64,000 nucleotides of DNA, from IMG/VR virus record IMGVR_UViG_3300018475_000125; one strand, written 5' to 3'. Each line of letters opens with the position of its first letter. The stretch's first letter is position 1. Both the position numbers and the translations under genes were made by a program. This document shows, in pieces, positions 8,120 through 54,585 of the stretch. Below the pieces are notes generated by a model. It ran no database searches, was not told where the DNA came from, and worked only from the letters and a program-made list of their open reading frames with translations. The stretch is from a virus.

Positions 8120-11100
8120 CTTGAAGGATTTTCGGGAAGTCGGGGATATTGAAGCTACCCGGCAGGCGATCTGGGATCAGGCATTGGAAGCGGCATCCTC
8201 GCTGGAGCCGGTGAGCAACAGCCGATACACACTGGGGCTGACGGACGTCCGCTGGCAGGGAAAGGACGTCTTCCCGAAGGCGGAGCATAAAAAGGCTCTG
8301 ATGAACGGGACCTATCTGACCCGAAAACTCTCCGGAACGTGGACGCTTACAGACAACGCTACCGGACAGCAGGTCGCCAAACGCCGTACGGTCATTGCGC
8401 ACGTGCCGTATATGACAGATATGGGGACCTTTGTACGCGGCGGGAATGACTACACGCTGGCGCACCAGCTGCGTCTGAAGCCGGGGGTCTACACCCGCTG
8501 GCTGGATAACGGTGAGCTGGAAGCGCATGTGAACGTTTCCAGGGGGCTGGGGCACAAGATCTATCTGGATCCGGCGTCCGGTATCTTCAAGCTCAAGATG
8601 GGGCAGGCTTCTGTTCCGGTAGCCGATGCACTGGAGATCCTCGGTGCTCCGCAGGATAAAATGCGCAAGGCGTGGGGCGAGGAGCTTTACCGGCAAAATA
8701 CATTCAAGCGCGATCCGAAAGCGCTCAACAAGCTCTACGAAAAACTGACTTACGGCAAGGGTGAGGCGCAGACGCAGGAAGAGAAGAAGCTCGCCATTCA
8801 GCAGGCATTCGCAAAGATGGGGCTGGATCCGCAGGTCTCGCAGGTGACGCTCGGTAAGCCGTACTCGGTCGTAGATCCGGATGTTATTCTGGATACGACC
8901 GCCAAGCTCCTGCGCATCAACAAGGGGCTTCAGGATACGGATTCCCGCGACGACATGGCTTTTCAGCGTCTGTTTGGTCCGGAGGATCTCATCGCGGATA
9001 AAATACGCTCTTCCGGTAATCTGATGCGGCAGTATCTCTGGCGGGCATCTCAGCGAAATGCACTGGATAAGATACCTGCGGGAGCTTTTGACGCGAATGT
9101 GGACAGTGTACTTATCGGCACGGGGCTGGGAATGCCTATCGAAGGGATCAACCCGATCGAAACGTTCGATAACCAGTTCCGCGTAACGCGCCTTGGCGAG
9201 GGCGGTATCGCTTCGCTGGACGCGATCCCGGCTTCTGCCAGAAACGTGCATCCTTCCCAGATGGGACTGATCGACCCGATCCGTACGCCGGAATCGCTGA
9301 AAGTCGGTGTGGATGCCCGTCTTGCCGGAAACGTCCGCAAGGGAAAGGACGGGCAGATCTACACACGGCTTCTGGATAAGAAAGGAAACAGTCAGTGGCG
9401 GTCTGCTACGGATATTGCGCAGTATGCCGTAGCGTTTCCGGGAGCGATGCAGTCGCCGTATAACTTCGTTCCGTGCGTGAAGGCCGGACGGATGCTGATG
9501 CTTCCGAAGGCGGAGATCGACTTTGCCTATCCGAATATGCAGTCGGCGCAGCATGCTACCGGGCGGCTGGTGCCGATGACTGCCAACGTAAAAGGGCAGC
9601 GTGCCGTGATGGCCGCCAGAATGCTGACGCAGGCGCTTCCGCTTCAGAACGCGGAGGCTCCGCTGGTCCAGACCGGGATGCCGGATGAGGAAGACAAGAG
9701 CTACGAGGAGCACTACGGCTCCCGCTTTGGGGCGATCCGAGCTACGGAACCGTGTCAGGTCATTGACGCGGGTCCGGATAAGGTGACGGTACGCACGAGG
9801 TCAGGAGAGACCAAAGATATTGAACTCTATCGGGATCTGGTATTCAACCGAAAGACGGGACTGTCTCAGCAGGCGGTAGTCCAGCCCGGCACGGTCCTGA
9901 AGCCGGGGGACCTGATCGCGCGTTCCAACTTCACGGACGACAAGGGTGCGATGGCTGTCGGGATGAATGCCAGGATCGCGTTCCTGCCGTATCAGGGACT
10001 GAACTTTGAAGATGCTATCGTGGTGAGCGAGAGCTTTGCGAAGCGGATGGCGTCGGAGCACTACTACAAGAACCGGCTTGCCGGAGGCTCGGACACGACA
10101 GTCGATACCCAGAAATTCCTTGCCATGAAGCCGGGAATGTACACGAAAGAGCAGACGGCGAACTTTACGGAGGATGGTTTGATCAAGCCGGGCACGGTAG
10201 TGCGTCCTGGCGATCCGCTTATCCTCGCCGTCACGAAGATCGAACCGACAGAGGCGCAGCGAAAGCTCGGAAGAAAGGCGCATTGGCGGGATTCTTCCGT
10301 GAAATGGGAGCACCATGACGACGGGATCGTGACGGATGTCTATCAGGACGCCAAGGGTGCGCAGGTCATCGTAAAATCCCGGCAGGAACTGCAGGTCGCG
10401 GATAAGATCTCCGGGCGGTACGGCAATAAGGGAGTCGTTTCCGCCATCGTTCCGGATGCTGAACTGCCTTCTTTGCCGGATGGAAGCAAGCCGGAGGTGC
10501 TTATGTCCCCTCTGGCGATCGTTGGACGCGTGAATCCAGGCTTTGTTTTGGAGACTCTGCTCGGAAAAATAGCGAAAGTGACCGGCAAACGCTATGCTCT
10601 GAAGGATTTTGGAGGCAGTACGGAGGATGTTGCGCGTTTTGTGGCGGAGGAAGCGAAGAAATACGGCATCAAAGACGTGGAAGACATGATCGATGACTCG
10701 GATCCGGACCATCCGAGGGTCATTCCGCAGGTCCTTAACGGCTACACCTACATGATGAAGCTCCATCACTCTGCGGAATCGAAGGCGCAGGGACGCGGAA
10801 TAGGCTCCTACACCAACGATCTTCAGCCTGCGAAGGGCGGAGATGACGGCGCGAAGAAGATCGGGATGCTGGAACTCTCCGCGCTGCTCAGTCACGGTGC
10901 TCTGAGCAACGTCGCGGACATGAAATACGTCAAAGGGCAGGAAAATCTGGACTATTGGCGGCAGTATACCGCCGGATACAACCCGCCGACACCCCGGATC
11001 CCTTACGTTTACCACAAGTTCGTGAATTTTTTGAAGGGTTCCGGCATTCACGTGCAGCGGGAAGGCTCCAGAGTCCACATTATGGCGCTGACCGCGAAGG

Positions 11101-12497
11101 ATGTGGACCAGATGACCGGCGATAGAGAGCTGAAAGGGGTCAAAGACCCGCGGACGGGACTCATGACGCTGCCTACAGTCGCCTGGGATGACAATTTGAA
11201 GGCACTTCCGGGCGGACTTTTTGATCCGAAGACCACCGGAGGTCACGCAGGGAACCAGTGGTCGTACATTCAGCTCGATCAGCCGTATCCGAACCCTGTC
11301 ATGGAGCAGCCTTTGCGCTTGATGCTCGGTTTGACAGAGAAAGAATTCCGCGATACACTGGCAGGGAAGCATAAATTATCCACAGGGACAGGTCCGGAAG
11401 CGCTTTACGCCGCTGCGAAGGCGCTGAATATCGAAAATGAGCTGATCCGAGCCAGAAATGACATAAAATCGGGCAGAAAAACGTATCGGGACGCTGCGGT
11501 CAAGCGGCTGGGCTACCTTAAATCCGCTCAGAGACTCAAACAGGAGCCGAAAGACTGGTTCCTGACGAAAGTTCCGGTCATTCCGCCCTATTTTCGTCCG
11601 GTTTCCCAGATGGGCGATAAAAAAATGCCGCTTGTTGCGGATGCGAACTACCTCTACAAACAGCTATTTGAAGCAAATCAGGCTTACAGGTATAATAGGC
11701 GCGTGTTTGGTGATGCAGAGTCCGGTGATCTGAGCTTGAACGTCTACGACTCATTCAAAGCGGTAACTGGGCTTGGTGAACCCACTACCTCGGAGCTTCA
11801 GCAGAAGGAAGTGAAGGGACTTTTGAAGTCGATATTCGGTTCCGGACCGAAATATTCGATGATGCAGACCCGTTTGCTCGGAACGCCGGTCGATATGGCG
11901 GGAAGAGGCGTCGTGGTGCCCAATCCGGACTACGATATGGATACGGTAGGCATTCCGGAGAACATCGCATGGGATACTTACAAGCCGTTTGTGATCCGGG
12001 AGCTTCGCAGACACGGCAGAGCGGGCATTCAGGCGATCAATGACGTGGAAAACCGCACGCCGGCAGCCCGTGAGATGCTTCAGAAGGTCATGGCATCACG
12101 TCCCGTGCTTGTAAACCGTGCTCCAACGCTCCACAAGTTCGGGATCATGGCTCTAATGCCGAAATTGATCAAAGGGGACGCCATCCGGGTGAATCCATTT
12201 GTTTATCCGGGCGCTGCGATGGATAATGACGGCGATACGATGGTTTTTCACGTCCCGTCTACGGATGAAGCGGCGCAGGAAGCGATCGAACGGATGCTTC
12301 CATCCAGAAACCTCCTTTCGCCGTCGGATTTTACCGTCATGCCGAAGATCACCAAGGAACATTTGATAGGACTCTACGAATCCACACGCCCCAGACCCGG
12401 AACGCCGACCCGAACCTTCCGAAATTCAGCCGATGTCGTCGCCGCCTGGCGCCGGGGCGATCTGGATCCGCATGAGAAAATAAGAGTAATGGAGTAA
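8112..12497 (+). CDS. multisubunit-type DNA-directed RNA polymerase, fused beta / beta-prime N-terminal (catalytic) subunit
   Basis: Beta-subunit motifs in order: GTFVRGGNDYTLAHQLRLKPGVY (compare E. coli [24 protein letters not shown]), PYQGLNFEDAIVVSE (NFEDA), SGRYGNKGVVS (GRHGNKG). These are followed in the same polypeptide by beta-prime motifs: VIPPYFRPV, NRAPTLHKFG (NRAPTLH), and PGAAMDNDGDTMVFHVP, a variant of the catalytic NADFDGD that keeps all three Asp. Confidence 0.8.
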   Translation: MDNLKDFREVGDIEATRQAIWDQALEAASSLEPVSNSRYTLGLTDVRWQGKDVFPKAEHKKALMNGTYLTRKLSGTWTLTDNATGQQVAKRRTVIAHVPYMTDMGTFVRGGNDYTLAHQLRLKPGVYTRWLDNGELEAHVNVSRGLGHKIYLDPASGIFKLKMGQASVPVADALEILGAPQDKMRKAWGEELYRQNTFKRDPKALNKLYEKLTYGKGEAQTQEEKKLAIQQAFAKMGLDPQVSQVTLGKPYSVVDPDVILDTTAKLLRINKGLQDTDSRDDMAFQRLFGPEDLIADKIRSSGNLMRQYLWRASQRNALDKIPAGAFDANVDSVLIGTGLGMPIEGINPIETFDNQFRVTRLGEGGIASLDAIPASARNVHPSQMGLIDPIRTPESLKVGVDARLAGNVRKGKDGQIYTRLLDKKGNSQWRSATDIAQYAVAFPGAMQSPYNFVPCVKAGRMLMLPKAEIDFAYPNMQSAQHATGRLVPMTANVKGQRAVMAARMLTQALPLQNAEAPLVQTGMPDEEDKSYEEHYGSRFGAIRATEPCQVIDAGPDKVTVRTRSGETKDIELYRDLVFNRKTGLSQQAVVQPGTVLKPGDLIARSNFTDDKGAMAVGMNARIAFLPYQGLNFEDAIVVSESFAKRMASEHYYKNRLAGGSDTTVDTQKFLAMKPGMYTKEQTANFTEDGLIKPGTVVRPGDPLILAVTKIEPTEAQRKLGRKAHWRDSSVKWEHHDDGIVTDVYQDAKGAQVIVKSRQELQVADKISGRYGNKGVVSAIVPDAELPSLPDGSKPEVLMSPLAIVGRVNPGFVLETLLGKIAKVTGKRYALKDFGGSTEDVARFVAEEAKKYGIKDVEDMIDDSDPDHPRVIPQVLNGYTYMMKLHHSAESKAQGRGIGSYTNDLQPAKGGDDGAKKIGMLELSALLSHGALSNVADMKYVKGQENLDYWRQYTAGYNPPTPRIPYVYHKFVNFLKGSGIHVQREGSRVHIMALTAKDVDQMTGDRELKGVKDPRTGLMTLPTVAWDDNLKALPGGLFDPKTTGGHAGNQWSYIQLDQPYPNPVMEQPLRLMLGLTEKEFRDTLAGKHKLSTGTGPEALYAAAKALNIENELIRARNDIKSGRKTYRDAAVKRLGYLKSAQRLKQEPKDWFLTKVPVIPPYFRPVSQMGDKKMPLVADANYLYKQLFEANQAYRYNRRVFGDAESGDLSLNVYDSFKAVTGLGEPTTSELQQKEVKGLLKSIFGSGPKYSMMQTRLLGTPVDMAGRGVVVPNPDYDMDTVGIPENIAWDTYKPFVIRELRRHGRAGIQAINDVENRTPAAREMLQKVMASRPVLVNRAPTLHKFGIMALMPKLIKGDAIRVNPFVYPGAAMDNDGDTMVFHVPSTDEAAQEAIERMLPSRNLLSPSDFTVMPKITKEHLIGLYESTRPRPGTPTRTFRNSADVVAAWRRGDLDPHEKIRVME

Positions 12498-23850: not shown

Positions 23851-23875
23851 CGGTCTTCACTCCGCATAAACTAAC

Positions 23876-23903
23876 AAAAAAGGCGCTTTTCAGCGCCTTT
23901 TTG
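23876..23903. terminator. bidirectional rho-independent terminator between convergent genes
   Basis: A6 then AGGCGCT tttc AGCGCCT then T5, so it can function on either strand. Confidence 0.75.
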
Positions 23904-23916
23904 TTATTAATAATTG

Positions 23917-41195: not shown

Positions 41196-41261
41196 TATAT
41201 TTAAGAGACAATGCCGGGCGGTCTGTTGCCAGTTCGCCCGGACTTTCAAGGAGAATCATAT

Positions 41262-41963: not shown

Positions 41964-42091
41964 ATGCAGGGGGGGCGAACAACGCGCAGGAGCTGAACCG
42001 GCGAATGCAGGCGCTGCCAGGGGTGTAGATATGACGCAGCCTGAGGGCGGCGGCAACGGTTTCTTGCCGGAAGGGGTCGGCTTCTAATAGT

Positions 42092-42517
42092 CTAACCTGT
42101 TTTCATCTTTCTAACTTTCTTTGCCTGTTCGATCATTCCGGACGGGTAATCTTTCATAAACTTGTCATAGAGTCCATTGGTCTCTATGACATTTTCATTA
42201 TATCCGTGTGCCAGCAGGCGAGGCACAGTTGTATGTCTTAACAGGAACGCACGTTCACTGGCACTGATTTGTCCTGCCTGAAAGCGCAGCGCGGCAATTT
42301 CACCTGCCAGACCTCCTCCGCCTTTCAGCTGATCCAGATATTCTTTTTGCAGTTTCTCCGTATCAAAGCGTTTGCTGTGATATTCTCGTACGGAGTACTT
42401 TTCGGAGGGAACATACCAGCCGCGGGCTCCAGTTTCCTGTATGCTTTTCTGATTCTCCTGAGCTTGTTTTGAGCGAGTTTCCAGCCATTGTGTGAAGTTT
42501 TCATTCAAATACTGCAT
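42092..42517 (-). CDS. hypothetical protein (141 aa) downstream of the sigma factor
   Basis: Start placed at the Met just after the sigma gene stop. Confidence 0.35.
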   Translation of the reverse strand: MQYLNENFTQWLETRSKQAQENQKSIQETGARGWYVPSEKYSVREYHSKRFDTEKLQKEYLDQLKGGGGLAGEIAALRFQAGQISASERAFLLRHTTVPRLLAHGYNENVIETNGLYDKFMKDYPSGMIEQAKKVRKMKTG

Positions 42518-42518
42518 G

Positions 42519-43274
42519 TCATCCTCCAAATAAATCGTAGCGGGAGTCATCATTCAGCTGGTCATAAATCTTTTTCTTATGCTGACTGACCGCAGCCTGT
42601 GAGATCTTCAAACTTTGCGCGATTTCTGAAGGTGTCATGACTGGCTGTCCGTGCATCCCGAGCATTCTTTCCATCACAGCTTTCTGCCGATCAGGAAGAC
42701 TGTCGTAGACGTATTCCTGCCAGGCTGCTTCTGCTTTATCTTCACCGAGAATGTTTCCATGCAGATACATACTGTTTCCGGTATCGCTGTTATTAATAGA
42801 CGACTCATATATAGGTCCTCCAAAGGACGTCCATTTCTGAATGTTTTTCAAAGGGATCCCGGTTCTATCCGCGATCTCCATCATGGACGGGAACCTGCCG
42901 AGCTCGTCAGTCAGTTCCTTTTCAGCTTCTGCAATAGCTCTCTGTCCCAGAGCCATGCGTTCCGGGATCTGAATAATATTTTGCTCTGCTCCGACAACTC
43001 GATGTAGTCCGCGCATTTGTCCATAGAGATAATTTTTAACGTTAGATGTTTCCGGATCGTACTTGCGCATGTAGGCCATGGCCATCATGTTGGCTTTTGC
43101 ACGAAGTACCTGATTAGAAGGAGATCCTCCCGCCGCCAGAATAGCATGGTCGATCCACGGCTGGATCTTTTTTAATAGTGCCGCATTGTTTTCCGGGGAG
43201 TTCCAGTCACTCTTCCATTGAACGTATACATCCTGAAGTTCGGGCTCGAGCATCATGCTGTTTTTTCCTTGCAA
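42519..43274 (-). CDS. RNA polymerase sigma factor, sigma-70 family (regions 2-4)
   Basis: Region 4 HTH LPDRQKAVMERMLGMHGQPVMTPSEIAQSLKISQAAVSQHKKKIYDQL. Region 3-like RFPSMMEIADRTGIPLKNIQKW. Region 2-like VLRAKANMMAMAYMRKY. The start may be at 43253, giving a TGATG overlap with the upstream gene. Confidence 0.65.
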   Translation of the reverse strand: MQGKNSMMLEPELQDVYVQWKSDWNSPENNAALLKKIQPWIDHAILAAGGSPSNQVLRAKANMMAMAYMRKYDPETSNVKNYLYGQMRGLHRVVGAEQNIIQIPERMALGQRAIAEAEKELTDELGRFPSMMEIADRTGIPLKNIQKWTSFGGPIYESSINNSDTGNSMYLHGNILGEDKAEAAWQEYVYDSLPDRQKAVMERMLGMHGQPVMTPSEIAQSLKISQAAVSQHKKKIYDQLNDDSRYDLFGG

Positions 43275-44914
43275 TAAAGTGAGGCTTCTGTATAGTCTGC
43301 CCGCCAGGCATCTTCATATAGCAGCGTTGTTATTCCGTTTGTTTCCTGCCGCAGCTCGTCAGTCCGCAGATTATTAATAACATAGCGGGTACTGACGCTG
43401 CTGCTTGTGATCTCACAGGTCACAAACTGGATCGTGCCGTAGACAAAGCCGGTGTCCCGTGTTTGCAGATCGGCGGTCGGCAGAGGGATTGCGACTATAT
43501 CTCCGGGAACGAGATCCAGCTTCAAAGGAGTTTTCACAGAGATCGAGAAGTCCTTCGTCATCTCCTGCAGGTAGCAGGTGTTTACGAATGCCTGACACAA
43601 CTGATCCAGGGAAGAGACCTGTACTGCCGACGATGCCGCCTCTTCTGCCTTTTTTACTGCTTCTCTGGAGGCAAAGGACAGAGTGGCTGGACGCTGTCCT
43701 GTAAAAGTATTATACTGACTTTGCAGCATGTCTGCCAACCAGCCGGGCATAAAGCATCCTTTCAGCACTCCCGGCTTCAACTCCTGCGGGCAGCGGAATG
43801 TGGTCAGTTCTGCGTCTGCGGACACGCCGGGAATGGGCTTACTGACTCCTTCGACGTCACGGACAGCCAGGATCATACCGCCAAGTACCGTGTTTGTCAG
43901 GCGGCGGTATTGAAACTGAGTAATCATGTTTAACGGGATCACACGGGACTGCTTCGGGTGTACTCCCAGTCCAAACCCTGGAACGATATACCCTTTGTTC
44001 ACTGTAGGTACCAGCCCGAGGCCAAGTGCCGGCAGTAACAGTGAGATCAGTTTCTGCCAGATAGTCACACCGATGCAGGCGCTGTAATCGAGAGCGCTGA
44101 TCCAGTTTGCCATACCTCTTCGCAGAGCCTCCTGCGCTGGTGTATCGGGTATGAGTGAATTCGGTAGCGTGCCATACTGCTCGCAGTCGATCTTCTCAAG
44201 TGCAGTGCGTGTACAGTTTAACAGATCCTTTGAGACATAGCCCGGGTCTGTCTTTTTCAGTGTAGCTACATCATCCAGTGTGCTCAGCAGGAGGTTTTTA
44301 AGTGCCTGACCCGGATGACTTAGCTTCGTGGAACGCAGTTTCGCAGCAGCTTGCTCCGCAGCACTCCACGCGACTGCGTCCGGCAGTCCTGCGGAAATAT
44401 TCGGTTCGGTATTGTTTATACGGAAGAGAGTGTTGCAGGAAAGGTCCCCTGGGTTTTCCGGGGAACTCAACCGGTGCAGTACCGGAAAAATATGCAGGTC
44501 TGCCAGCCAATGTGTCAGGTGCAGGGTATGCTGCCCCGTAGACACGCCCAGTGCCGATGTCCATCCGATTATGTAGCCCTTAAAGAGACACAGAACTTCC
44601 CCTGAGTCCGTGCTGGGTAATCCTTCCAGAGAATGACTGCTTTCAAGACAAACCGCGACAGGTGTCCGCTGAGCATAGGCGGCACGAAGAGCACTCTGTG
44701 ACTCGTCAGCGTAGCTGCATGGCTGTGTGGGGTCTGTGATTTTGATCCCGGCCGGTACCCGCAGGACTAGGGATGGGATCATGTTGACAGCATAAACGAT
44801 TTGTGCGCCAACAGCTTCTCCAAGTTCGTTTCCGAGTTTTCTATCCGCGACCGCGCCGTCCCCTGCCAATGTCCAGATGGTAAGCCGCAGATTGGAAAAA
44901 TGCAGTTCACTCAT
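43253..44914 (-). CDS. hypothetical virion protein (553 aa)
   Basis: ORF in the minus-strand morphogenesis operon. Confidence 0.4.
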   Translation of the reverse strand: MSELHFSNLRLTIWTLAGDGAVADRKLGNELGEAVGAQIVYAVNMIPSLVLRVPAGIKITDPTQPCSYADESQSALRAAYAQRTPVAVCLESSHSLEGLPSTDSGEVLCLFKGYIIGWTSALGVSTGQHTLHLTHWLADLHIFPVLHRLSSPENPGDLSCNTLFRINNTEPNISAGLPDAVAWSAAEQAAAKLRSTKLSHPGQALKNLLLSTLDDVATLKKTDPGYVSKDLLNCTRTALEKIDCEQYGTLPNSLIPDTPAQEALRRGMANWISALDYSACIGVTIWQKLISLLLPALGLGLVPTVNKGYIVPGFGLGVHPKQSRVIPLNMITQFQYRRLTNTVLGGMILAVRDVEGVSKPIPGVSADAELTTFRCPQELKPGVLKGCFMPGWLADMLQSQYNTFTGQRPATLSFASREAVKKAEEAASSAVQVSSLDQLCQAFVNTCYLQEMTKDFSISVKTPLKLDLVPGDIVAIPLPTADLQTRDTGFVYGTIQFVTCEITSSSVSTRYVINNLRTDELRQETNGITTLLYEDAWRADYTEASLYCKEKTA

Positions 44915-45366
44915 GCTCTGACTCCAACCAGTTCCAGCCGAAACGTGTCCAGATCTTCCTGAACGGAAGATACATTACGGGTGCATTTGATAAGGTAGAC
45001 CCTGTATGTTATGCCGTTGAGCAGCATTTTGAACCAGCTCTTTAGTGTACCAGATTTGGACTGTGAGTAGAGTTCCATCAGCGGATCGGAGGTGCCGTCT
45101 GACTCAGAGCAGGCGTCGTAACAGGTCACACCGGATAACGTGATCCTTTCTGGTTTATCCCCGGCAGTGTACATATAAATGTCATTGCCAAGCGTAGACA
45201 TCGTAACGTTGTTTTCTGCACTGGCTATGGATATATCCAGCACCATCAGATTATACCCCTGACGCAGGTCAGGATCACCCAGCTGAAAGGTTACGGCGGT
45301 ACCGACCTTATTCTCACTACGTACACCGGCTCCGCGTTTTGTTTGTTGTATGACACTGCTAGACAT
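44911..45366 (-). CDS. hypothetical small structural protein (151 aa)
   Basis: Start at the Met downstream of the 621-aa gene stop. Confidence 0.4.
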   Translation of the reverse strand: MSSSVIQQTKRGAGVRSENKVGTAVTFQLGDPDLRQGYNLMVLDISIASAENNVTMSTLGNDIYMYTAGDKPERITLSGVTCYDACSESDGTSDPLMELYSQSKSGTLKSWFKMLLNGITYRVYLIKCTRNVSSVQEDLDTFRLELVGVRA

Positions 45367-47224
45367 TTCCGGCAATCTCCGCTCTAAGGTCCTTGGTATT
45401 GGCGATAACGACACGTATTGAATTATCCTCTGCCTGGAATTTAGCCACCAGGTCGCGAATACCTGAGCCCAGCAGACTGGTTATCGCTTCGGCAGTCCCG
45501 GGGGCTGTCTCTACTGCAGGGACCACGGGTGAGTTTTTCTCTGACGCAGGCGATGCCTCTGAAGGAGGTGTACCTGTAGATCCAGCAGAGGACTTGGGTG
45601 CTGCAGTTTCGGTACCCGATACCAGAGCAGGATCCGATGCCGACTCAGCTCTAGCTTTAACATGTTCTTTAGCTTCCGCGTTAGAAAGGGTCCGTATAGC
45701 CTTCAATAATGCCACGGCGGACTGTTTGTCTCCATTTGCCCACGTTTCCGCTAAAGCGGGAAGTTTTTCTGCGGTAAGGGACGAGAGCTCGGTAAAAAGT
45801 GCAGCTTCAACCTCTCCACGGGACAGATTATTGGTCGAAATGCCCAGATCACTGGCGAGATTTTTGACCTGCTTATCACTAAGGTTCTCCGGATCTGTTA
45901 CCCCGAACAGGAGCTGCAGCATTTCTTTGGAGCTCTTCTGGATACTGGCACCGAAGAGAATCGTCTGCAAGCCTGCTTGTGTATTCGTTTCAGCAAGTAA
46001 GCCTTGAATCTGTTTTTCGTTCAGCCCATAACCTTTTCCTTTTAGCAGATTGGCTGCAAACGTGAGGATCCCTCCCTCGGCATCTAATGCGGCCTGCAAG
46101 GTACTATTCTCCGGGAGCGGCAGGATTCTGCTCAGGTGCGCCTCCATCGCGATCCGCCGACTGGCTGCGTCATCAAGAGCACGGGTGTAGTCGAAAGATT
46201 CCAGCGTCATGTTTGCCAGCCCTGTAACTGCCCGCATGCCTTGTTCCACACCGATCGCATTGACTACCAGCTGATCACCTTCAAGTGCATCTATCACGTC
46301 GTTCTGACCTGCGTTTTGCAGCCGTGTGCGCTCCCGAGGGGTGAGTTCCCGTTTGTTAGAAAGCAGCTCTTTAATATCCTGAGAGGTAAAGCCAGTGCTT
46401 ATGAGTGCGGTGGCGGCATCGATCGCGGCAGTCTTCTGATCTTTGGAAACTCTGCCTTCCAGAGCTTTTTCCCATTCGTAACGGGCAGCGTCTCCTGTCA
46501 TATTTTCGAGTACATTCCACTGGTTGGAGGTGCGGTGTGCCGTCATAGCGGCAGCCTGACTATCCGCGGCGGACAGACTATTACGAATAGCCTGCTGCCC
46601 CCCGCGAGTGAAGTGGGAATCAAAGGATTCAGAGCTATACCCTGCATTCATCCAGCGGTCTCGCAGCGTTTCCCGCTCGGCAATAAGCTGGTAGTCGTCC
46701 TTTGTACCTTGTCCGGAGCGGATACGTTTTGCGGTCTCTGCGAGACCGAGTTTCTGGAGTGTGGCTTCGTCCTGACTTAGGATCCAGGCGGCGTTTTCCA
46801 TATAGTCCGAGGCAAAGATCCTGGAAGCGACTTGTGCGGACTGTGCCATACTGCGATTTGGATCGAAATCCGTGGAACTTCCGGAGTGCATATTACTGTA
46901 GTGCAGCATTTGAGCAAATTCCGTAGCCCTTCCAATTTCTTCGGAGGACACGCCCAGCTTTTGCAGCTGCTGTCCTACTGCCTGTGCTATGGAGACAGTG
47001 CGTTCCAGCGTTATATCATTAGCCTGCGTCCAGCGTATGTTCCTGCTGGCTTGTTCTGCTGCATTTTCAGCATTCAAATTCGTGCTTCCAAGCAGTTGTG
47101 CGAACTGTTGCGCGGCTTCAAGTTCCTGACCAGGCTTGAAGAATTTATCGAAGTCCGACAACCCTTGTGCAGCTGTCTGGATGGCACTTAAATCCCGAAG
47201 CCGTTCAGCGACATCTGTTTCCAA
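45359..47224 (-). CDS. long alpha-helical virion protein (621 aa; tape-measure/internal-protein-like)
   Basis: Predominantly helical, Ala/Leu/Glu/Gln-rich. Ser/Pro/Thr-rich low-complexity segment near the C-terminus. Confidence 0.35.
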   Translation of the reverse strand: METDVAERLRDLSAIQTAAQGLSDFDKFFKPGQELEAAQQFAQLLGSTNLNAENAAEQASRNIRWTQANDITLERTVSIAQAVGQQLQKLGVSSEEIGRATEFAQMLHYSNMHSGSSTDFDPNRSMAQSAQVASRIFASDYMENAAWILSQDEATLQKLGLAETAKRIRSGQGTKDDYQLIAERETLRDRWMNAGYSSESFDSHFTRGGQQAIRNSLSAADSQAAAMTAHRTSNQWNVLENMTGDAARYEWEKALEGRVSKDQKTAAIDAATALISTGFTSQDIKELLSNKRELTPRERTRLQNAGQNDVIDALEGDQLVVNAIGVEQGMRAVTGLANMTLESFDYTRALDDAASRRIAMEAHLSRILPLPENSTLQAALDAEGGILTFAANLLKGKGYGLNEKQIQGLLAETNTQAGLQTILFGASIQKSSKEMLQLLFGVTDPENLSDKQVKNLASDLGISTNNLSRGEVEAALFTELSSLTAEKLPALAETWANGDKQSAVALLKAIRTLSNAEAKEHVKARAESASDPALVSGTETAAPKSSAGSTGTPPSEASPASEKNSPVVPAVETAPGTAEAITSLLGSGIRDLVAKFQAEDNSIRVVIANTKDLRAEIAGNV

Positions 47225-49446
47225 CGCAGCACCGCCTGCAAATGCAATAATTTTCTGAGCTGCATGCTTTCTAGCCCGCTCTGCTGCGGATGTGCCTGAC
47301 TCCTGGGCATACTGTCGTAGCAGCTGTACGGCGTCGGTATCTGATGGTGCCGGGTTATCTCGGATAGTAAGTCTCGTACTGCCTGCGCAGAGGCTTCTTT
47401 TGCGGATGTTACTTCGTTCTCCGCGATATTGGAAGACGTTCTTCCCTTATCTTCAGGCAAATTTTTCCATTCGTCCTCTGTGATGAGCTTTCCTTCTGCA
47501 TCGTAGTAACGCATAACGAAGTTCTCATCTTTGAGTGTACCGTCGTCGTTATATAGCTTATCACCATGAAAGTTGTTAGCATCCAGCATATCTGAAAGCA
47601 CTGCACTTTCGATCTGACGTGTGAACTGTTTTTTCTGCGCTTCAGAGAGCCGTTTGATCCCGCGAAGGACATCCGTATCTCCCCGAAGCACATAGCGGTC
47701 TGTCTGAAGTCCTGTGTTGCGCATAACCGTGAGGGCTTCTTGATAGTCTGCTGCTTTTGCCCACGCGTTTTCCCGGGTAGGTCCTGCGGCTGCCAGCTGT
47801 GCGAACTGTCCGAACATCAGCATGGCTTCAGTAGACAGGGAACCGTCTACCGCTGTATCATAAAGTCCTGCGTAGTCCCCGTGGGGTCCTACAAACAAAG
47901 AGGAAGCCATTTCGTCTATGTTTTGCAGGATCTGCTTGTATTCAGGCTTCGTGGCCGCGATCTGCGTCAGCATCTGCTGCCGCAGCGCCTTTGTCATAGG
48001 GCTGTTATAGATCTGAACGATTTGCCGGGCAGTGTCGTCATGCAGATCGATATTCAGTTTTTTTGCCAGCTGCTGGATATTACGCATTCCGGCTTGTGTC
48101 TGCCGTTCCGATACATCACCTAGGGCTTCTGCGCGGTTCCAGACGAGCATTCGATTCAAAATCTGCTCATCCAGGGCTGTACTGGTGTTGTATCTGGATT
48201 CCAGTGAAAAGAGTTCGCCGAAGGCATTTTTTACGTCACCTGCCATGCTGCCGAACCAGCTGCCTACACCGAGCAGGGTATCGTAGCCTGTGCCAAACGT
48301 ACTGTGCGCCGTATCTGCGATCCATTGCGCAGGCACACGTAAAAAGGAAGGCAGTGCGTCAATACCTGACTCTACTGCTGCTTTCGAGAAGTCTACTTTT
48401 TTATTGTTATCTTTTGCCCACTTATTCAGGTTGCCGATCAGTGTGCGGGCACCCTTCATCGGATCCTGAAGTGCTTCGGGAGTGTAGACGTCGGCCAGCT
48501 GATTCAGGAATTCTTCGTTTTTCATTCCATTCGTCTGCGCCAGTGTATGCAGACGAGTGAAAGTCTGACTTACATTGTCTCCGAAAAAAGCCATCGGGAT
48601 CGTATCCAGCAACAGCTGCGACGCATACTGTTTCTGATGCTTTGTTCGATAGTCGCCGTACTCCTTGTGGTTTAACCAGTCGCTATTCCCGTGCGTCAAC
48701 TCGGCTATCTGCTCATCGAGGTGCGGCACAATGGCAGCCAGAACACGAAGCGGATTGTCCGAAAGCTGAGAGGGCAGCATATTAACATCCACGCCTGCCC
48801 GTCGGACGGCCGTGAACAATAAGGACTCTGGCATAATTCCATCGGGTAGATCCTCAAGCTCGTCATTAAGCATTTCGAAAACCTGACGTGGCTGTTCGGG
48901 CAGCGACGACAGCAGGTTTTCTATTACGCGGGGCCGCCAGTCATTTATTACGTGGGACAACTGGTCCTTGATCTTAGATGCTTTGGCCTTAGCTTGAGCT
49001 ATGGTAGCCTCGAACGAGGCTGCAGACGTTGAAGGTTTATTATCGGGTTTTGTGTTCTCTGCCGAGGGGGCCGGCTCAACCGAGGGCTGTAACTTGTCAG
49101 AGGAAATAGACATATCCGCAGGAGAGCCGGCAGTATCGCCCTCCGGCATGCCCTGTACCGGCTCATCCGATACAGATAGATCAAGCTCATCACTGTCGGC
49201 ATTGCGCAAATCAACACCTTGCGCAGTGGCCTCCGCTTGGACAGTCGAGTCATCGAGTGCCTTTTGAATAGCAGTAACACCCCGGACGAGGTCCAGGGTA
49301 TCTTCATCACATTGCGACACTGCCTCTATAAACGCAGTAATTTCGTCCGGAGTGGCATCCCCGTTGTTAATCTTAACTGCCCGTTCATTAATCTGTGTCA
49401 GCGTCAGTTTTTGTGTGTCGTCCTGCTGTGCCATATACCTGTTCAT
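47188..49446 (-). CDS. long alpha-helical virion protein (752 aa; tape-measure-like)
   Basis: Helical composition, adjacent to another long helical gene. Confidence 0.35.
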   Translation of the reverse strand: MNRYMAQQDDTQKLTLTQINERAVKINNGDATPDEITAFIEAVSQCDEDTLDLVRGVTAIQKALDDSTVQAEATAQGVDLRNADSDELDLSVSDEPVQGMPEGDTAGSPADMSISSDKLQPSVEPAPSAENTKPDNKPSTSAASFEATIAQAKAKASKIKDQLSHVINDWRPRVIENLLSSLPEQPRQVFEMLNDELEDLPDGIMPESLLFTAVRRAGVDVNMLPSQLSDNPLRVLAAIVPHLDEQIAELTHGNSDWLNHKEYGDYRTKHQKQYASQLLLDTIPMAFFGDNVSQTFTRLHTLAQTNGMKNEEFLNQLADVYTPEALQDPMKGARTLIGNLNKWAKDNNKKVDFSKAAVESGIDALPSFLRVPAQWIADTAHSTFGTGYDTLLGVGSWFGSMAGDVKNAFGELFSLESRYNTSTALDEQILNRMLVWNRAEALGDVSERQTQAGMRNIQQLAKKLNIDLHDDTARQIVQIYNSPMTKALRQQMLTQIAATKPEYKQILQNIDEMASSLFVGPHGDYAGLYDTAVDGSLSTEAMLMFGQFAQLAAAGPTRENAWAKAADYQEALTVMRNTGLQTDRYVLRGDTDVLRGIKRLSEAQKKQFTRQIESAVLSDMLDANNFHGDKLYNDDGTLKDENFVMRYYDAEGKLITEDEWKNLPEDKGRTSSNIAENEVTSAKEASAQAVRDLLSEITRHHQIPTPYSCYDSMPRSQAHPQQSGLESMQLRKLLHLQAVLRWKQMSLNGFGI

Positions 49447-49759
49447 ACGCCTGTTTTAGACGTTCATAAGGGTTGTCGGTTTCTTCGTCTTCTATCTCCG
49501 GCAGGTGCAGCATTTTCAGCAGTAATGCTCGATTATGCCGCAGCCGCGCGTAGTTTTTCTTTCTGGAGTCTTCATCCGCCATTACCGTGGAAATAACACA
49601 GTGGAGTGCGGAATGCGCCGCTGCGGTTGCTTGATTCAGACGGTACAATTCCTCGATAATAAGTTTCAGCCTTGTAAAGTAATTCGGTCCGACTGCCGCG
49701 AAGTTGAACCTTCCGGTAGCCGCTGCCTGCAGGATCATGCCGAAGTCGGACCGTGCCAA
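49388..49759 (-). CDS. hypothetical protein (123 aa)
   Basis: ORF only. Overlaps its neighbours. Confidence 0.3.
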   Translation of the reverse strand: MARSDFGMILQAAATGRFNFAAVGPNYFTRLKLIIEELYRLNQATAAAHSALHCVISTVMADEDSRKKNYARLRHNRALLLKMLHLPEIEDEETDNPYERLKQAYEQVYGTAGRHTKTDADTD

Positions 49760-50793
49760 AAATCCTTATCATACAACTCCTGCTGCAGACGGATGAGCAG
49801 CCGGTTAAACTCCTTCCAGTGTTCTATAAGCTCCTGCTGAAGCTCTACAGAGGTGATCATTCGGTTGTACCACTTCTCCATGAAATATTCCAGCCTCGTA
49901 TGTGTTGTATCCGGGTTGAACTCGAAACTCCATACTGACGGAACTACAGGGGCGGTCAACTGAACTTCTGGTGCGTATTGGATCGCTTTCAGCGAGAGAG
50001 CAGTGTGATACTGATTAAACTTCCGGTTCGCGACAGGGATGATATTCAGTTTCTGTTCCTGCTGCTCCTTGGAAAAGAGCTCAATAAACAATTCCTCCTC
50101 TTCAGAAGACGAGGTCTTGAAAGTCACCTGGCACAGCCCGCCCCAGCAGGAATAGGTTTTGGTGAATGCAGGCCCGCCAAGAACATAAACAAGGTACGCT
50201 CTCTGATCACTGAGGTCCAGTTCCGCAGGTGTATACTCCTGACTCAGGTTCCATTTGCAGCAGGGGCATACTGCGGGAGGCAGTTGTGCGTTATTAATAG
50301 CAAGAGGTGAGGGCTTTGGTTCTTCCAGTTCTTCCAGTTCTTCCTCTAATTCTTCCTCCGATGCTTCATCTTCCAGAATACGGGCTTCTGACTGGATCCG
50401 GTCTACTTCTGCCTGAATTGCGGCTTCTTTGATCTGACGCATTACTCCCTGGTCTTCATCAGTGATCCGGAACTGATCTCCGAGACTCTCTTCTGCGGCT
50501 GTCAGGGCATTTTCTTTCTCCTGGATCTTCCGCACGGCACTCTGTAGAGTCAGCAGTACTTCCGGGTGTTTCAGAGCCGCTCTTACACTGTCCGGACGGG
50601 ATGGGAGTCCCAATGTCTGAAACACTGCTCCGAAATATTCCGGAAGCTGCCCGGGAATAGCTCCGCCTTCTTTCCAGCCGACTTCTTTCAGGCTTTCACG
50701 TACCCATGCTCCGGCGGTTGCCCGCAGCGACACCGGCTTCTGTATGTCAAGGATCTTGTGAAGATTCAGCAAATCAGCATTCATACTTTCCAT
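49735..50793 (-). CDS. hypothetical protein with acidic EELEEELEELEE stretch (352 aa)
   Basis: ORF only. Confidence 0.4.
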   Translation of the reverse strand: MESMNADLLNLHKILDIQKPVSLRATAGAWVRESLKEVGWKEGGAIPGQLPEYFGAVFQTLGLPSRPDSVRAALKHPEVLLTLQSAVRKIQEKENALTAAEESLGDQFRITDEDQGVMRQIKEAAIQAEVDRIQSEARILEDEASEEELEEELEELEEPKPSPLAINNAQLPPAVCPCCKWNLSQEYTPAELDLSDQRAYLVYVLGGPAFTKTYSCWGGLCQVTFKTSSSEEEELFIELFSKEQQEQKLNIIPVANRKFNQYHTALSLKAIQYAPEVQLTAPVVPSVWSFEFNPDTTHTRLEYFMEKWYNRMITSVELQQELIEHWKEFNRLLIRLQQELYDKDFWHGPTSA

Positions 50794-50805
50794 AAATCAC
50801 TCCTG

Positions 50806-53421
50806 TTAAAGTACCTTCCAGGTATCTAAATTTTTGATCTCCGGCTTATTATACTGGGGATCCTTGTACTCCGCAACCGGCTCATTTCCAGACCATCTTT
50901 GCTTTGGTAGCCCTCTGGAAGTAAGATTGGAATCCTGAGTCACAAGGCACGGTTTTTCTTTGAGATACTTTTTACCCGGATAAGGATGTTCTCCTTTTCC
51001 AGAAGAGGTAGTTACTGTCGTTTCTGTCCATGTCTCTATACCGGAGCTGCAGATAAGCTGCCAGTTGTCTGCGTAGATGTAGAAAGATTCAGGAAGATCC
51101 AGTTCCTCGTCTGTTCGAAAACTGAAGCCGGCACCAGTCAGGACTTCGGAATATCCGGGACGCCCTTTGTCATAGAATTGGGATTGAACGATACCAGAGC
51201 GGTTTTTCTGCTGCGCTTGTACGTTTTCTGATTCAATACGGGTTTGCGCTTGTCGCAGCCGTGTATCAAACGCGGCAGCGGTCTCGTCCTTCAGCGGAGA
51301 AACGTAGATTTTGGTGACGGCGTCTTTCGTATACACGTGCGTGCCGGAATAGAATCCGCCTCCGGCGTCTACCTGCTTTTGAAAGGTACCGCTGCCGTTG
51401 CATAGGAGCTGTCCAGGCAGCGTGTGCTGATCTTTCAGGGATTCCTGCACCGCTTCTACACGCCCAGCTTCAAAATCGCCCCAGTTAAGCGCGTGCCGTG
51501 TCTTGATAAAATCCAGCTTCTCTGTACTTTGTGTAAAAAGTCTTCCGCGTCCGGCATCCAGCATCATCCCGCCGCCTTGCCCCTCGACCCCTGCTCTTGC
51601 GAAGACAGTATTCGCCAGCATAGAGAGAGTACCTTTTGCCGTTTTAATAACGACACCGCCGGTCTCGATTTGTTCTCCCGCGCTAGTGAAATCCATGGAT
51701 CCCCGCCCTTTACTTTCGATCACGACACCGGATCGGGAACCTTCATTACCTCCGAGAAGCTCCAGATTTTTTTCCGCTTTTATGCGAACAGAACCTTTTG
51801 TAGTTGTGAGGTCTGCGTGTTTTCGTGTCCTTAAATTTAAGTCGCGCCCGGACCATATCTGTGTGTCTTTCCCTGATCGGATCCAGATCCCGCCCGGTGC
51901 GGAGATGGTTATCTGCCCTCCGGACATCCGTAATTCTGAACCATATCCATCTTGAAGCACGACCCCTCCATCCGGAAGGAGATGCAGCCCTGCCTCCGCC
52001 GGAGTATACTTCTGTTCTGTGTTTTCCAGCCGCGTAGACCAGTCCGCAGGGTAGTCAATCAGCTGGCGAGAGTGCAGTTCTTTTATTTTTTTGGACAGAT
52101 CCCAGACTGGCGTATCCTTTATTACATCCCGTATCTCCGGTACATACCACTCTTTTCGATGGAAAAGAAGGGGTGCGACAAGTTTATAGTTCAGGGTGTA
52201 GGCTGCATAATCCCGAATCCCCATCAGGCTCTGCATCAGCTTTGAAGTATCCGTCGCAGTAAAGTCCGGCTCGCCCTTAATCACTATCTGGGCATGTGTG
52301 AAGTCGTAATTGTCTCTGGTATCGCCTTTAAGTGGGTCTTCGGTAAGCTCGATTCGTTGTATAGAAGGAAGGACACCTCGCTTGGTAATCGAGATACCTT
52401 TGGACGACTCAATACTGAGGAAACCGTCACTGTGCTGAGCGATTCGGGAAAGTGCCTTTTGATCTGGTTCCTTTTTGCCATATTCCGCTACCTTACTATC
52501 CGCAGGCGGTGCCAGGATCCACGATTGTTTTCCCTGCCCCAGCCAGCCGCCAAGTTCTATAACGCGATGAAAAGGTTTCGCTTGCTGTACGACCGGCTCT
52601 GTGAATGAGCGGGCATCATTGTGCAGATCCATCCACTTCTCATTAAATTCAACAATATCAGAGGACGGTTTGTGGTAGTAGCCAAAAGATTCCCAGGGGT
52701 TTAAGCAGTGACCCGAGTATTCAATATATTCCCCATGATCGTTTAATTGTTCCTCATAGCTTCCAGAGGTAATTTTCTGATAGTTGATCCCGGCTATTCT
52801 GAGCAGGGAATCGTCGCGGAAGGCCCAGAGACCGGTTGCGTCATTCACAGACATCAAAGTCATGAAAGGATCCAGAAACAGTTTAGGCCCTGCGGGGGAG
52901 CCAACATAGAATTCACCTGCGTCGTACCTCTGCACCGGCATACCATGTGTCCAGCGCGGAAGATATGAATTGGGGTCCAGACTATAAAGCGACTTTTGGA
53001 AAGCCTCCTCACGCCGAAAGTTTTCAGAGTGCGTGATCAGAGTACGCAGATCCGCGTCGTTATATCGGGACCGTTCCCCGTATTTCCCCAGAATGACTGC
53101 ATCGAGCATATCTGTTTGACAGGCGAGCAATACCAGATCTCCAGGACAATACCCAGGCGAACATTGTACCATACCTCCGGTTGTCATGAGCGGATGCGCA
53201 ATACGAATACCATTTTGCGCAGTATTTACCTTGTAGATATTTTCACCCAGACATGCGTCTGCTATCGTTCCAATACACAAGATCATACCGTTGTTTCTGA
53301 AAGAAAATTCACGCATTCGACTTTGCCCGGCAGGATCCTTGGGAATATCCCCGGGCGGGAGCATCCCGGAAAGCTGCGTGAAGTTCTCGAAGCAATAGTT
53401 GGCAAATTCCTGTAGATTCAT
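50806..53421 (-). CDS. tail spike/fiber or baseplate spike protein with beta-helix repeats (871 aa)
   Basis: The C-terminal half has repetitive Gly-rich beta-helix-like units (SGGQITISAPGGIWIRSGKD, GSVRIKAEKNLELLGGNEGS, GVVIESKGRGSMDF, GGVVIKTAKGTL). ATGA overlap with the upstream gene. Confidence 0.45.
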   Translation of the reverse strand: MNLQEFANYCFENFTQLSGMLPPGDIPKDPAGQSRMREFSFRNNGMILCIGTIADACLGENIYKVNTAQNGIRIAHPLMTTGGMVQCSPGYCPGDLVLLACQTDMLDAVILGKYGERSRYNDADLRTLITHSENFRREEAFQKSLYSLDPNSYLPRWTHGMPVQRYDAGEFYVGSPAGPKLFLDPFMTLMSVNDATGLWAFRDDSLLRIAGINYQKITSGSYEEQLNDHGEYIEYSGHCLNPWESFGYYHKPSSDIVEFNEKWMDLHNDARSFTEPVVQQAKPFHRVIELGGWLGQGKQSWILAPPADSKVAEYGKKEPDQKALSRIAQHSDGFLSIESSKGISITKRGVLPSIQRIELTEDPLKGDTRDNYDFTHAQIVIKGEPDFTATDTSKLMQSLMGIRDYAAYTLNYKLVAPLLFHRKEWYVPEIRDVIKDTPVWDLSKKIKELHSRQLIDYPADWSTRLENTEQKYTPAEAGLHLLPDGGVVLQDGYGSELRMSGGQITISAPGGIWIRSGKDTQIWSGRDLNLRTRKHADLTTTKGSVRIKAEKNLELLGGNEGSRSGVVIESKGRGSMDFTSAGEQIETGGVVIKTAKGTLSMLANTVFARAGVEGQGGGMMLDAGRGRLFTQSTEKLDFIKTRHALNWGDFEAGRVEAVQESLKDQHTLPGQLLCNGSGTFQKQVDAGGGFYSGTHVYTKDAVTKIYVSPLKDETAAAFDTRLRQAQTRIESENVQAQQKNRSGIVQSQFYDKGRPGYSEVLTGAGFSFRTDEELDLPESFYIYADNWQLICSSGIETWTETTVTTSSGKGEHPYPGKKYLKEKPCLVTQDSNLTSRGLPKQRWSGNEPVAEYKDPQYNKPEIKNLDTWKVL

Positions 53422-53744
53422 CGCACACCTCCAAACACACAAAAGCCGTTCCAGGCCTCATTGTCCATATTCCAGACGCACTGGCTTTCTTCCGAGTCCG
53501 GAACCCGGAAGGTCAGCGTACTGCGAAGCGGTCCGCTGAAAGCGGAGGTCATGAAAGTGTAGAGCCGGAAGCCGTCACCTGTGTGTTTCTGGTGGAGCCA
53601 TACTTCCGGGTTTTCGAATTCCGGGTTCACGATAAAGAAACGGGCATCAAGGATCTCATCAGGTCTCAGGCCGGAAGCCTCCGGATTTTCCTGAAACGGA
53701 TAACTTCGATGACTGTTTGCGGTGTTCCAGTCTGAAATAGCCAT
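53418..53744 (-). CDS. small protein with N-terminal WNTANSHRSYP motif (108 aa)
   Basis: RBS AAGGAGAATT. The N-terminus is paralogous to the start of gene 29265..30254. Confidence 0.4.
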   Translation of the reverse strand: MAISDWNTANSHRSYPFQENPEASGLRPDEILDARFFIVNPEFENPEVWLHQKHTGDGFRLYTFMTSAFSGPLRSTLTFRVPDSEESQCVWNMDNEAWNGFCVFGGVR

Positions 53745-53826
53745 AATTCTCCTTTTGCTGCGGATAAAAGTTTCAGGTATACTACGGGAAATGTAACACA
53801 CAGCTACCTTTTTGACAAGGATATGA

Positions 53827-54543: not shown

Positions 54544-54585
54544 GAAAAAAAGGGCGGTCTTCTGTGACCGCCCGGTCTTTTATAG
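54544..54585. terminator. bidirectional terminator between convergent genes
   Basis: A7, then GGGCGGTC ttctgt GACCGCCC, then a T-rich tract. Confidence 0.65.

Follow-up and report, generated by a model that had tools for sequence, protein, structure and literature searches.

The stretch of viral DNA analyzed here, IMG/VR record IMGVR_UViG_3300018475_000125 (hereafter the window; 64,000 nt, with positions counted along the whole stretch), encodes on its minus strand, at 42519 to 43256, a genuine, highly divergent protein of the sigma-70 family. As judged from profile comparisons and a predicted fold, its architecture is group 3–like (sigma2, sigma3, a linker, and sigma4, with no region 1.1). 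The analysis was computational and based on sequence; core binding and promoter-specific initiation are the predicted role of the protein. We propose, with a probability of about 0.4, that it may serve as the promoter-specificity subunit of the phage’s own RNA polymerase, being made late and probably packaged. The combination of a sigma factor with a fused bacterial-type polymerase, probably virion-associated, appears to be a new variant of phage transcription strategies.

The sigma-70 identity put forward in an initial annotation of this DNA was confirmed. The protein scored above the Pfam cut-offs for Sigma70_r3 (33.5 bits against 25.3) and Sigma70_r4 (28.4 against 24.1), both of which pass their thresholds in 23 of 23 close homologs, and it matched PHROG 351, “RNA polymerase sigma factor,” at 9.5e-12. 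The region 4 helix-turn-helix is supported by the Sigma70_r4 score and by helices in an AlphaFold2 (AF2) model; Pfam GerE also exceeded its cut-off over this region. The same annotation had described clear signatures of regions 2, 3, and 4, which is correct for regions 3 and 4 and overstated for region 2: Sigma70_r4 was matched, and Sigma70_r2 was not among the Pfam families matched by the 23 family members at E ≤ 1. All NCBIfam models that matched remained below their cut-offs. The best of them, SigB/F/G (TIGR02980), reached 45.2 bits against a cut-off of 234, and FliA_WhiG (TIGR02479) reached 29.5 bits against 189.6, scores that place the protein in neither subfamily. Membership in group 4 (extracytoplasmic function factors) was ruled out, since region 3 is present; the score for the sigma-70 superfamily model TIGR02937 was 33 bits, below the cut-off of 42.9.

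Region 2 is seen only by profile comparison and in the predicted fold. A search with the single sequence aligned residues from ~61 onward to region 2 of RpoS, and a profile of 87 sequences aligned, among Protein Data Bank (PDB) entries, to Staphylococcus aureus SigB (10–231), RpoS (10–235), Mycobacterium tuberculosis SigB (44–242), and SigA (E 4e-15). The AF2 model, with a predicted local distance difference test score (pLDDT) of 72, has helices for sigma2, sigma3, and sigma4 and a disordered linker where region 3.2 is expected. When this model was compared to PDB structures with Foldseek, the top matches were sigma factors aligned over ~220 to 260 columns; the BFVD matches were phage sigma factors with 10 to 19% identity.

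Residue roles were taken from established knowledge of sigma-70, in which R584, E585, and R588 (Escherichia coli numbering) read the −35 element. The equivalents of N409, Y430, R436, and R441 are kept, and the last of these (R86) is invariant across the 87 family members. The Trp dyad of region 2.3 (W433/W434) is replaced by G-Q, and the equivalents of R584, E585, and R588 are Q, A, and S. Since recognition residues of regions 2 and 4.2 are replaced, the factor is unlikely to be specific for the host sequences TTGACA and TATAAT. The best sequence and fold matches are bacterial group 3 factors (SigB/SigF/SigG and FliA/WhiG) and RpoS, which share with it the sigma2-sigma3-sigma4 arrangement without region 1.1 and a similar size. 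The window protein differs from them in scoring far under the curated cut-offs, in having a region 2 that Pfam does not detect, and in the substitution of the region 2.3 aromatic and region 4.2 recognition residues.

A word-indexed search returned 22 relatives only (40 to 99% identity, all ~245 amino acids), and with HMMER, run over 1.84 billion representatives, the number of clusters was 380 at E ≤ 1e-30 and rose to 1222 at E ≤ 1e-10, each of them full length. Among cultured phages, the sole tblastn match, a weak one, was to Salmonella phage Arash, whose gp10 carries a sigma factor annotation. Alignment of the window family to gp10 with hhalign gave 99.2% (E 1.2e-19, 202 columns), and alignment to VPHD69_0011 of Vibrio phage D69 gave 96.9%. 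The latter (10995–11684 of the D69 genome; 229 amino acids) is annotated as hypothetical, occupies the position of gp10, and matches the Pfam region 3 model. The profile did not match the second Arash sigma factor, gp196 (hhalign 3.9%), which is more canonical (Sigma70_r2 at 6e-10). By these alignments the window protein belongs with the gp10-like family and not with other phage sigma factors. The family is large and essentially unannotated, and Arash gp10 is its sole studied member. At the nucleotide level, the region matched none of 50,697 phage records, and the 29 pattern matches that the sigma alignment gave in IMG/VR did not include a relative.

Arash gp10 (WGL32461.1, “RNA polymerase sigma factor RpoS”) and its D69 counterpart share with the window protein a length of 229 to 245 amino acids, a region 3 recognized by Pfam, and a gene tightly coupled within a run of virion genes and followed by a small gene; all three genomes encode a polymerase in which beta is fused to the N-terminal part of beta′ (beta/beta′-N). 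The genes of the run were taken as virion genes by virion detection in Arash and by positional correspondence in D69. The differences are considerable. Identity between gp10 and the window protein is ~25% and, by BLAST, confined to the N-terminal 140 amino acids; Pfam region 4 is clear in the window family and not in gp10 or D69_0011; the window gene follows genes of ~150 and ~550 amino acids, whereas in Arash and D69 the sigma gene precedes genes of 168 and 528 amino acids; and the small downstream proteins are unrelated.

The span 42092–43274, given initially for the sigma factor, does contain the sigma gene but lumps together two minus-strand genes, that of the 245–amino acid sigma factor and an ORFan of 141 amino acids. 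In the mechanical list of open reading frames (ORFs), the sigma ORF runs from 42519 to 43274 with a TTG start, which is unlikely to be used; an AAGGA at 43270–43266 lies upstream of the ATG that we prefer, and a second ATG (43253–43251) is an alternative. As the initial annotation stated, there is a TGATG overlap with a co-directional upstream gene: the TGA of the 553–amino acid ORF overlaps both the first ATG (43256–43254, as ATGA) and the second (as TGATG). The 141–amino acid ORF is listed as 42092 to 42553, and its likely true start is the ATG at 42517, preceded by its own GGAGGA and separated from the sigma stop codon by one base. In near-identical metagenomic contigs, independent gene calls yielded identical 245– and 141–amino acid products.

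The sigma gene is the penultimate one of a gap-free minus-strand operon of ~11.7 kb that runs from 53744 to 42092 and encodes, in order, proteins of 108, 878, 352, 123, 752 + 621, 167, and 553 amino acids, the sigma factor, and the 141–amino acid protein. On the other side it converges on an operon that ends with a tail-sheath gene (PHROG tail sheath, 3.9e-9; a homolog of Arash gp236). The order of ~150 amino acids, ~550 amino acids, sigma, 124 to 153 amino acids, and convergent sheath operon is kept in five species, in which sigma identity falls to 45%, and in every relative examined (five metagenomic species, Arash, and D69) the gene is tightly packed in a virion-gene operon. Its placement near the end of an operon of large virion-type genes, with translational coupling, is conserved. 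The initial description as the distal end of a tail operon was accurate as to position and coupling; the tail label is plausible, resting on a sub-threshold DUF2345 match and on the neighborhood. That match, in the 878–amino acid protein, was the only one obtained for operon proteins other than the sigma factor in Pfam, PHROGs, NCBIfam, and PDB. Metagenomes were also scanned with the MAISDWNT pattern of the operon's first gene, in order to footprint its promoter, and all proteins retrieved were unrelated.

The large operon protein is encoded here by two overlapping minus-strand ORFs, 45359–47224 (621 amino acids) and 47188–49446 (752 amino acids), and in relatives by a single ORF of 1283 to 1693 amino acids. 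Compared to the relative L001, where it has 1365 amino acids, the DNA is 93% identical with 32 gap positions (the sigma factor is 99% identical); hypervariability of the gene, a frameshift, or a misassembly could account for the split. The protein encoded last in the sheath operon (41211–41963, plus strand) has a C-terminal Asn/Gly-rich tandem repeat (NAGNNAGNNAGN...), and its length varies among near-identical strains (212 to 232 amino acids in L001, L002, and L004). A strong bidirectional intrinsic terminator (54552–54573; an 8-bp GC-rich stem with T-runs on both strands) separates the convergent genes 53827–54543 (plus strand) and 54590–55333 (minus strand). No comparable terminator was found after the sigma operon (41964–42091).

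The initial annotation had paired the sigma factor with a fused beta/beta′ gene. Both genes do occur in the window, and also in Arash; the fusion is of most of beta (rpoB model positions ~250–1093) with an N-terminal part of beta′ only (residues ~143–534, including the catalytic domain). The product matched Pfam Rpb2_6 (7.7e-50) and Rpb1_2 (4.3e-21), PDB structures of beta′ (1e-47) and beta (9e-49), and, under their cut-offs, the NCBIfam models for rpoB, rpoC, and beta/beta′ fusions. Full-length homologs are present in Arash (gp206; 30% identity over 99% of the length) and in Vibrio phages D69, D148, and D181. In Arash, the C-terminal part of beta′ is a separate protein, gp216 (Rpb1_5). At least 634 homologs of the fused polymerase were found at E ≤ 1e-20, many of them on contigs of 190 to 213 kb; several metagenomic ones carry LAGLIDADG inserts (1930 to 2200 amino acids). 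Among genomes with enough sequence to be assessed, out of at least 380 sigma clusters, the sigma factor and the fused polymerase occur together in the window, in a 56,781-nt contig, in Arash (gp10 with gp206 and gp216), and in D69. For the contig, 56,781 nt is the longest for both the sigma homolog P0014 and the polymerase P0030 (72% identity), and the two are most likely on one contig. The phage polymerase keeps the full length of the beta′ clamp-helix segment, where sigma region 2 docks. No second sigma factor was found in the window.

The Arash homologs were detected in a published mass spectrometry proteome of Arash particles (PMC10585845), from which we calculated spectra per residue using gene lengths. 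The top protein was gp206, with 3516 spectra (2.3 per residue), and values for gp216 (1210 spectra, 2.0 per residue) and gp10 (467 spectra, 2.0 per residue; 100% coverage with 24 unique peptides) were close to it. The portal had 877 spectra (1.5 per residue), the major capsid protein 1333 (4.3), ribonucleotide reductase alpha 663 (0.87), and deoxynucleoside monophosphate kinase 116 (0.59). Near-equal normalized counts of gp206, gp216, and gp10 are as expected of a stoichiometric complex in or on the particles and point to packaging. The small protein encoded after sigma, gp11, had 156 spectra, and gp196 was absent from the virion table (PMC10585845). The DNA helicase gp217 (41261–42679 of the Arash genome), encoded directly after the beta′ C-terminal subunit, had 1148 spectra (2.4 per residue), a count per residue like those of gp206, gp216, and gp10; the helicase may belong to the polymerase complex as a fourth component. 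The window has a counterpart of another Arash virion-detected protein, gp222 (“structural protein”), in an 860–amino acid ORF at 16693–19275 (plus strand) that is interrupted by an intein (Hint and LAGLIDADG).

We propose that the sigma factor would serve the phage beta/beta′ polymerase and not the host core. Packaging would explain its synthesis along with the virion proteins: it would be loaded into the particle alongside the phage polymerase, and the complex would then enter the next cell with the DNA and initiate transcription there. In function the complex would be comparable to the virion RNA polymerases of phiKZ or N4, except that it uses a true sigma-70 homolog, and a second, more canonical sigma factor such as Arash gp196 would act inside the cell. 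That the phage enzyme is the partner is supported by co-occurrence in three deep lineages, by the Arash counts, and by the full-length clamp helices. The late expression that the initial annotation found unusual for a sigma factor is better explained by the presence of the Arash homolog in purified virions with the phage polymerase. More broadly, it is a tentative possibility, which we put forward with reserve, that a widespread clade of myoviruses of ~180 to 210 kb (the window, Arash, Vibrio phages D69, D148, and D181, and hundreds of metagenomic contigs) packages and injects a minimal holoenzyme of beta/beta′-N, beta′-C, and sigma-70, with a second sigma factor later reprogramming the core.

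Several points weigh against this proposal. Packaging is predicted from data on a homolog that shares ~25% identity with the window protein. In the Arash proteome, 116 of 252 proteins, ribonucleotide reductases among them, were listed as virion proteins, and its authors allow for carry-over (PMC10585845); in a study of a Twort-like phage, a phage sigma factor seen by virion mass spectrometry was judged to be carry-over. These three considerations are the reason why our confidence does not go beyond the value given above. The window was searched for a beta′ C-terminal subunit, and none was found. The beta flap tip, where sigma region 4 docks, is 8 residues shorter than in E. coli (the beta part with the tip lies at 9789–11111), and of the 13 family members aligned, the 12 from the window clade and the environment lack the LLRAIF hydrophobic patch, which makes canonical docking of sigma4 on the phage enzyme doubtful; in Arash gp206 the tip is 5 residues longer. 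The residues in regions 4.2 and 2.4 of the sigma factor are unlike those that read TTGACA and TATAAT. Putative promoters of the host sigma-70/sigma-A type precede the operons of sigma and polymerase as well as the likely early genes, and with such matches the host polymerase could do much of the transcription. No convincing phage-specific promoter consensus emerged from motif analysis of the window. The phage-specific promoters that the initial annotation took to be implied were therefore not borne out: host-like sites are enriched between genes, and an extended −10 element precedes the sigma operon.

Matches to TTGACA-N16-18-TATAAT at 10 or more of 12 positions numbered 16 in the window, compared to 6.7 ± 2.5 in shuffled sequences, and 8 of the 16 lie in the ~11% that is intergenic; the site at 60191–60163 is a perfect 12/12 match. 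At the place of the candidate promoter of the sigma operon (Table 1), the relative L005, whose sigma factor is 55% identical, has TTGCCA-N16-(TGT)TATACT, and the polymerase operon has TTGTTA-N17-(TGT)TAAACT upstream of 7607. Enrichment of host-type promoters indicates that the host polymerase is probably used. It speaks for an alternative in which the protein is a late-gene sigma factor for the host core, like SPO1 gp34, that displaces the host sigma factor and has nothing to do with the phage polymerase, its location in a virion operon providing positive feedback on late genes. Reviews regard action on the host core as the default role of phage sigma-70 homologs; the flap tip of host beta is intact, that of the phage enzyme is truncated; and D69 has an annotated Srd-like anti-sigma factor (23371–23910 of its genome), so that this clade also targets the host holoenzyme. 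We nevertheless consider this alternative unlikely. A late-gene switch should precede the late genes, and no conserved internal promoter would allow this. Phage sigma factors acting on the host core are typically expressed earlier than the genes they control. Two minus-strand matches upstream of sigma within the operon, 43738–43709 (11/12) and 43900–43872 (10/12), were rejected: neither is present in four relatives, and they were for this reason taken as chance or strain-specific. In addition, the candidate promoter of the operon is host-like and not sigma-specific, the co-occurrence with the phage polymerase is consistent, the Arash counts look stoichiometric, and the more canonical second Arash sigma factor fits such a role better.

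It is also conceivable, and in our estimate rather improbable, that the protein is the sigma factor of the phage polymerase and is not packaged. The holoenzyme would then act inside the cell at middle or late times, and the detection in Arash virions would be carry-over, which is documented or suspected in such datasets. The co-occurrence of sigma and polymerase fits this alternative equally; the polymerase gene of the window lies beside nucleotide-metabolism genes, outside the virion genes, with its own sigma-70–like promoter, and the likely early genes have host-like promoters. However, the counts for gp206, gp216, and gp10 (2.0 to 2.3 per residue) exceed that of the portal and are two to four times those of the carry-over enzymes (0.6 to 0.9), gp196 is not in the virion table, and the sigma gene lies within a virion-gene block in three deep lineages.

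The 141–amino acid protein had been suggested to be an anti-sigma factor or modulator. All five species of the clade have a small gene (124 to 153 amino acids) after sigma; similarity to the window protein was confirmed in three of them (57% identity in P0024, 42% in L005, and 28% in L006), with 22 invariant positions that include an R-H-x3-P-R...G-Y...N-G pattern. No relatives were detected outside the clade. The protein had no match in Pfam (E ≤ 1), PHROGs (E ≤ 1), NCBIfam (E ≤ 0.01), or PDB (E ≤ 10), including the anti-sigma families considered (Rsd/AlgQ, AsiA, FlgM, SpoIIAB, the zinc-binding anti-sigma domain, and Srd), and comparison with Arash gp11 and D69_0012 showed no homology (hhalign 1.1%). 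Its AF2 model is all-helical, with a pLDDT of 46, too poor for fold comparison. A cognate factor that keeps the co-translated sigma inactive, for instance until packaging or injection, would fit the one-base spacing from sigma, the own ribosome-binding site, the constant position within the clade, the predicted helical fold, and the occurrence of a different small gene at this place in Arash and D69, with gp11 found with virions. Yet adjacency is weak evidence within a tightly packed phage operon, and neither family searches, comparison with the Arash and D69 counterparts, nor the model supported the suggestion. An anti-sigma or chaperone role, based on adjacency, is possible, and we regard control of sigma by this protein as improbable. 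Least probable by far is that the sigma homolog is a degenerate protein with a DNA-binding or structural role that has lost polymerase binding altogether: its region 2 is too diverged for Pfam, the Trp dyad is lost, and no NCBIfam cut-off is reached, but all three domains and the linker are present at normal lengths, conservation is strong in at least 380 clusters, and the N409, Y430, R436, and R441 equivalents are retained, R86 throughout the family.

According to reviews (2020, 2021, and 2026), large phages have either a multisubunit RNA polymerase without sigma or a sigma factor that hijacks the host core without a phage polymerase. The window clade has both, against this two-group division. 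Like that of the window, the polymerases of phiKZ- and AR9-like jumbo phages are phage-encoded, multisubunit, and built from unusually split or fused beta and beta′ homologs; polymerase is present in their virion preparations, and their nonvirion enzymes have separate specificity subunits (gp68 and gp226). In contrast, their beta and beta′ are in four to five pieces and far more divergent (the fused polymerase of the window matches bacterial subunits at 1e-47 to 1e-49), and they have no sequence-recognizable sigma-70 homolog, which is the rule stated in the reviews. The sigma factors of T4-like jumbo phages, SPO1 gp28 and gp34, Bacillus SigF-like factors, and phiEco32 gp36 belong to the same sigma-70 family, redirect a bacterial-type core, and are BFVD structural neighbors of the window protein at 10 to 19% identity. 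They act on the host core in phages that have no polymerase of their own, whereas the window genome has its own core enzyme, with the sigma gene at the end of a virion-gene operon. We found no paper that discusses a sigma factor paired with a phage multisubunit polymerase; the Arash paper merely lists the proteins (PMC10585845).

If the broader possibility of a packaged and injected holoenzyme is correct, the clade would be the first with a viral RNA polymerase dependent on sigma-70 and the first with a sigma factor carried in the virion. Pairing of sigma with the phage enzyme would link bacterial holoenzymes to the highly derived phiKZ and AR9 enzymes, make a compact sigma-dependent polymerase of three polypeptides available for structural and evolutionary work, and reveal a new route to viral transcriptional autonomy from injection on. 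Since Arash and the Vibrio phages are in culture, the question is testable now. Even on an ordinary reading, the analysis delimits a large family of sigma factors, with at least 380 clusters, that escapes the annotation models now in use.

Table 1. Positions of the sigma gene, its predicted domains, and associated features in the window (aa, amino acids).
Feature	Position	Strand	Remarks
Sigma-70–family gene, gp10-like	42519..43256	−	245 aa; start ATG 43256, TGA stop 42521–42519
Divergent sigma domain 2 (predicted)	42987..43196	−	aa ~21–90; helices H21–41, H49–63, H73–90; profile and AF2
Sigma region 3	42822..42962	−	aa ~99–145; Pfam Sigma70_r3 in 23/23 members
Linker at region 3.2 position	42738–42821	−	aa 146–173; low confidence in AF2 pLDDT profile
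Sigma region 4 with helix-turn-helix	42528..42737	−	aa ~174–243; recognition helix ISQAAVSQHKKKI; Pfam r4, GerE, AF2
Translational-coupling junction	43251..43270	−	AAGGA, tandem ATG 43256–43251, upstream TGA 43255–43253; read from sequence
141-aa ORFan	42092..42517	−	ATG 42517; GGAGGA 42527–42522 upstream
553-aa gene	43253..44914	−	directly upstream of sigma; 541–562 aa in relatives, position conserved; no family
Rest of operon upstream	44911..53744	−	108-, 878-, 352-, 123-, 752+621-, and 167-aa genes
878-aa protein	50806–53442	−	sub-threshold VgrG/DUF2345 match
108-aa gene, first of operon	53418–53744	−	
Candidate sigma-operon promoter	53790..53818	−	TTGTCA-N17-(TGT)TACATT; consensus match and one two-species comparison
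Fused RNA polymerase beta + beta′ N-terminal gene	8112..12497	+	1461 aa; proposed partner of sigma
TATTAATA sites	309, 3168, 7905, 14217, 21037, 23905, 30260, 40172, 42791, 43372, 50292, 56521, 61507		

Three sequence motifs are over-represented in the window; the excess is real, and they either do not behave as promoters or have an unclear role. The recurring T-tract plus CAGGA element noted initially upstream of genes did not hold up as such: TTTCAGGA was observed 17 times against 4.9 expected, but mostly within genes. TATTAATA, an AT-only palindrome that often appears as TTATTAATAA, is present at 13 sites, compared to 0.32 expected, in a genome of 53% GC, with one site inside the sigma gene. 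It was rejected as a phage promoter, since sites upstream of genes are no more frequent than sites within genes or at convergent gene ends, and since, of the two more distant relatives checked, L005 has one site and L006 has none. It could be the site of a regulator, a methylase, or a nuclease. GTATAC was found 21 times (5.5 expected), with GCAGTATAC at 10961, 31407, and 35823. At 53777, 34542, and 26212, in operon-start or divergent regions, there is a common element, TTG...CGGA(A/T)AAAAG..GTATACT (on the other strand, AGTATAC..AACTTTT..TCCGCA). One copy precedes the sigma operon and another the sheath operon, and the element may be a common promoter or operator of virion-gene operons.

The window appears to derive from a large lytic-type phage with a possible restriction-modification system. 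An EcoRII-type restriction endonuclease (EcoRII-C, 4e-69) is encoded at 58026–59336 (minus strand); the adjoining ORF 59198–60142 (minus strand), which lies behind the perfect promoter match described above (TTGACA-N17-TATAAT), is perhaps the partner methyltransferase. The genes at 360–2003, 4973–6229, and 6643–7344, which together suggest an anaerobic host, encode the anaerobic ribonucleotide reductase NrdD (3e-160), a probable NrdG activase of the radical-SAM type, and a MYG1-family exonuclease. Strong AGGAGG ribosome-binding sites and promoters with TGn extended −10 elements suggest that this host is Firmicute-like.

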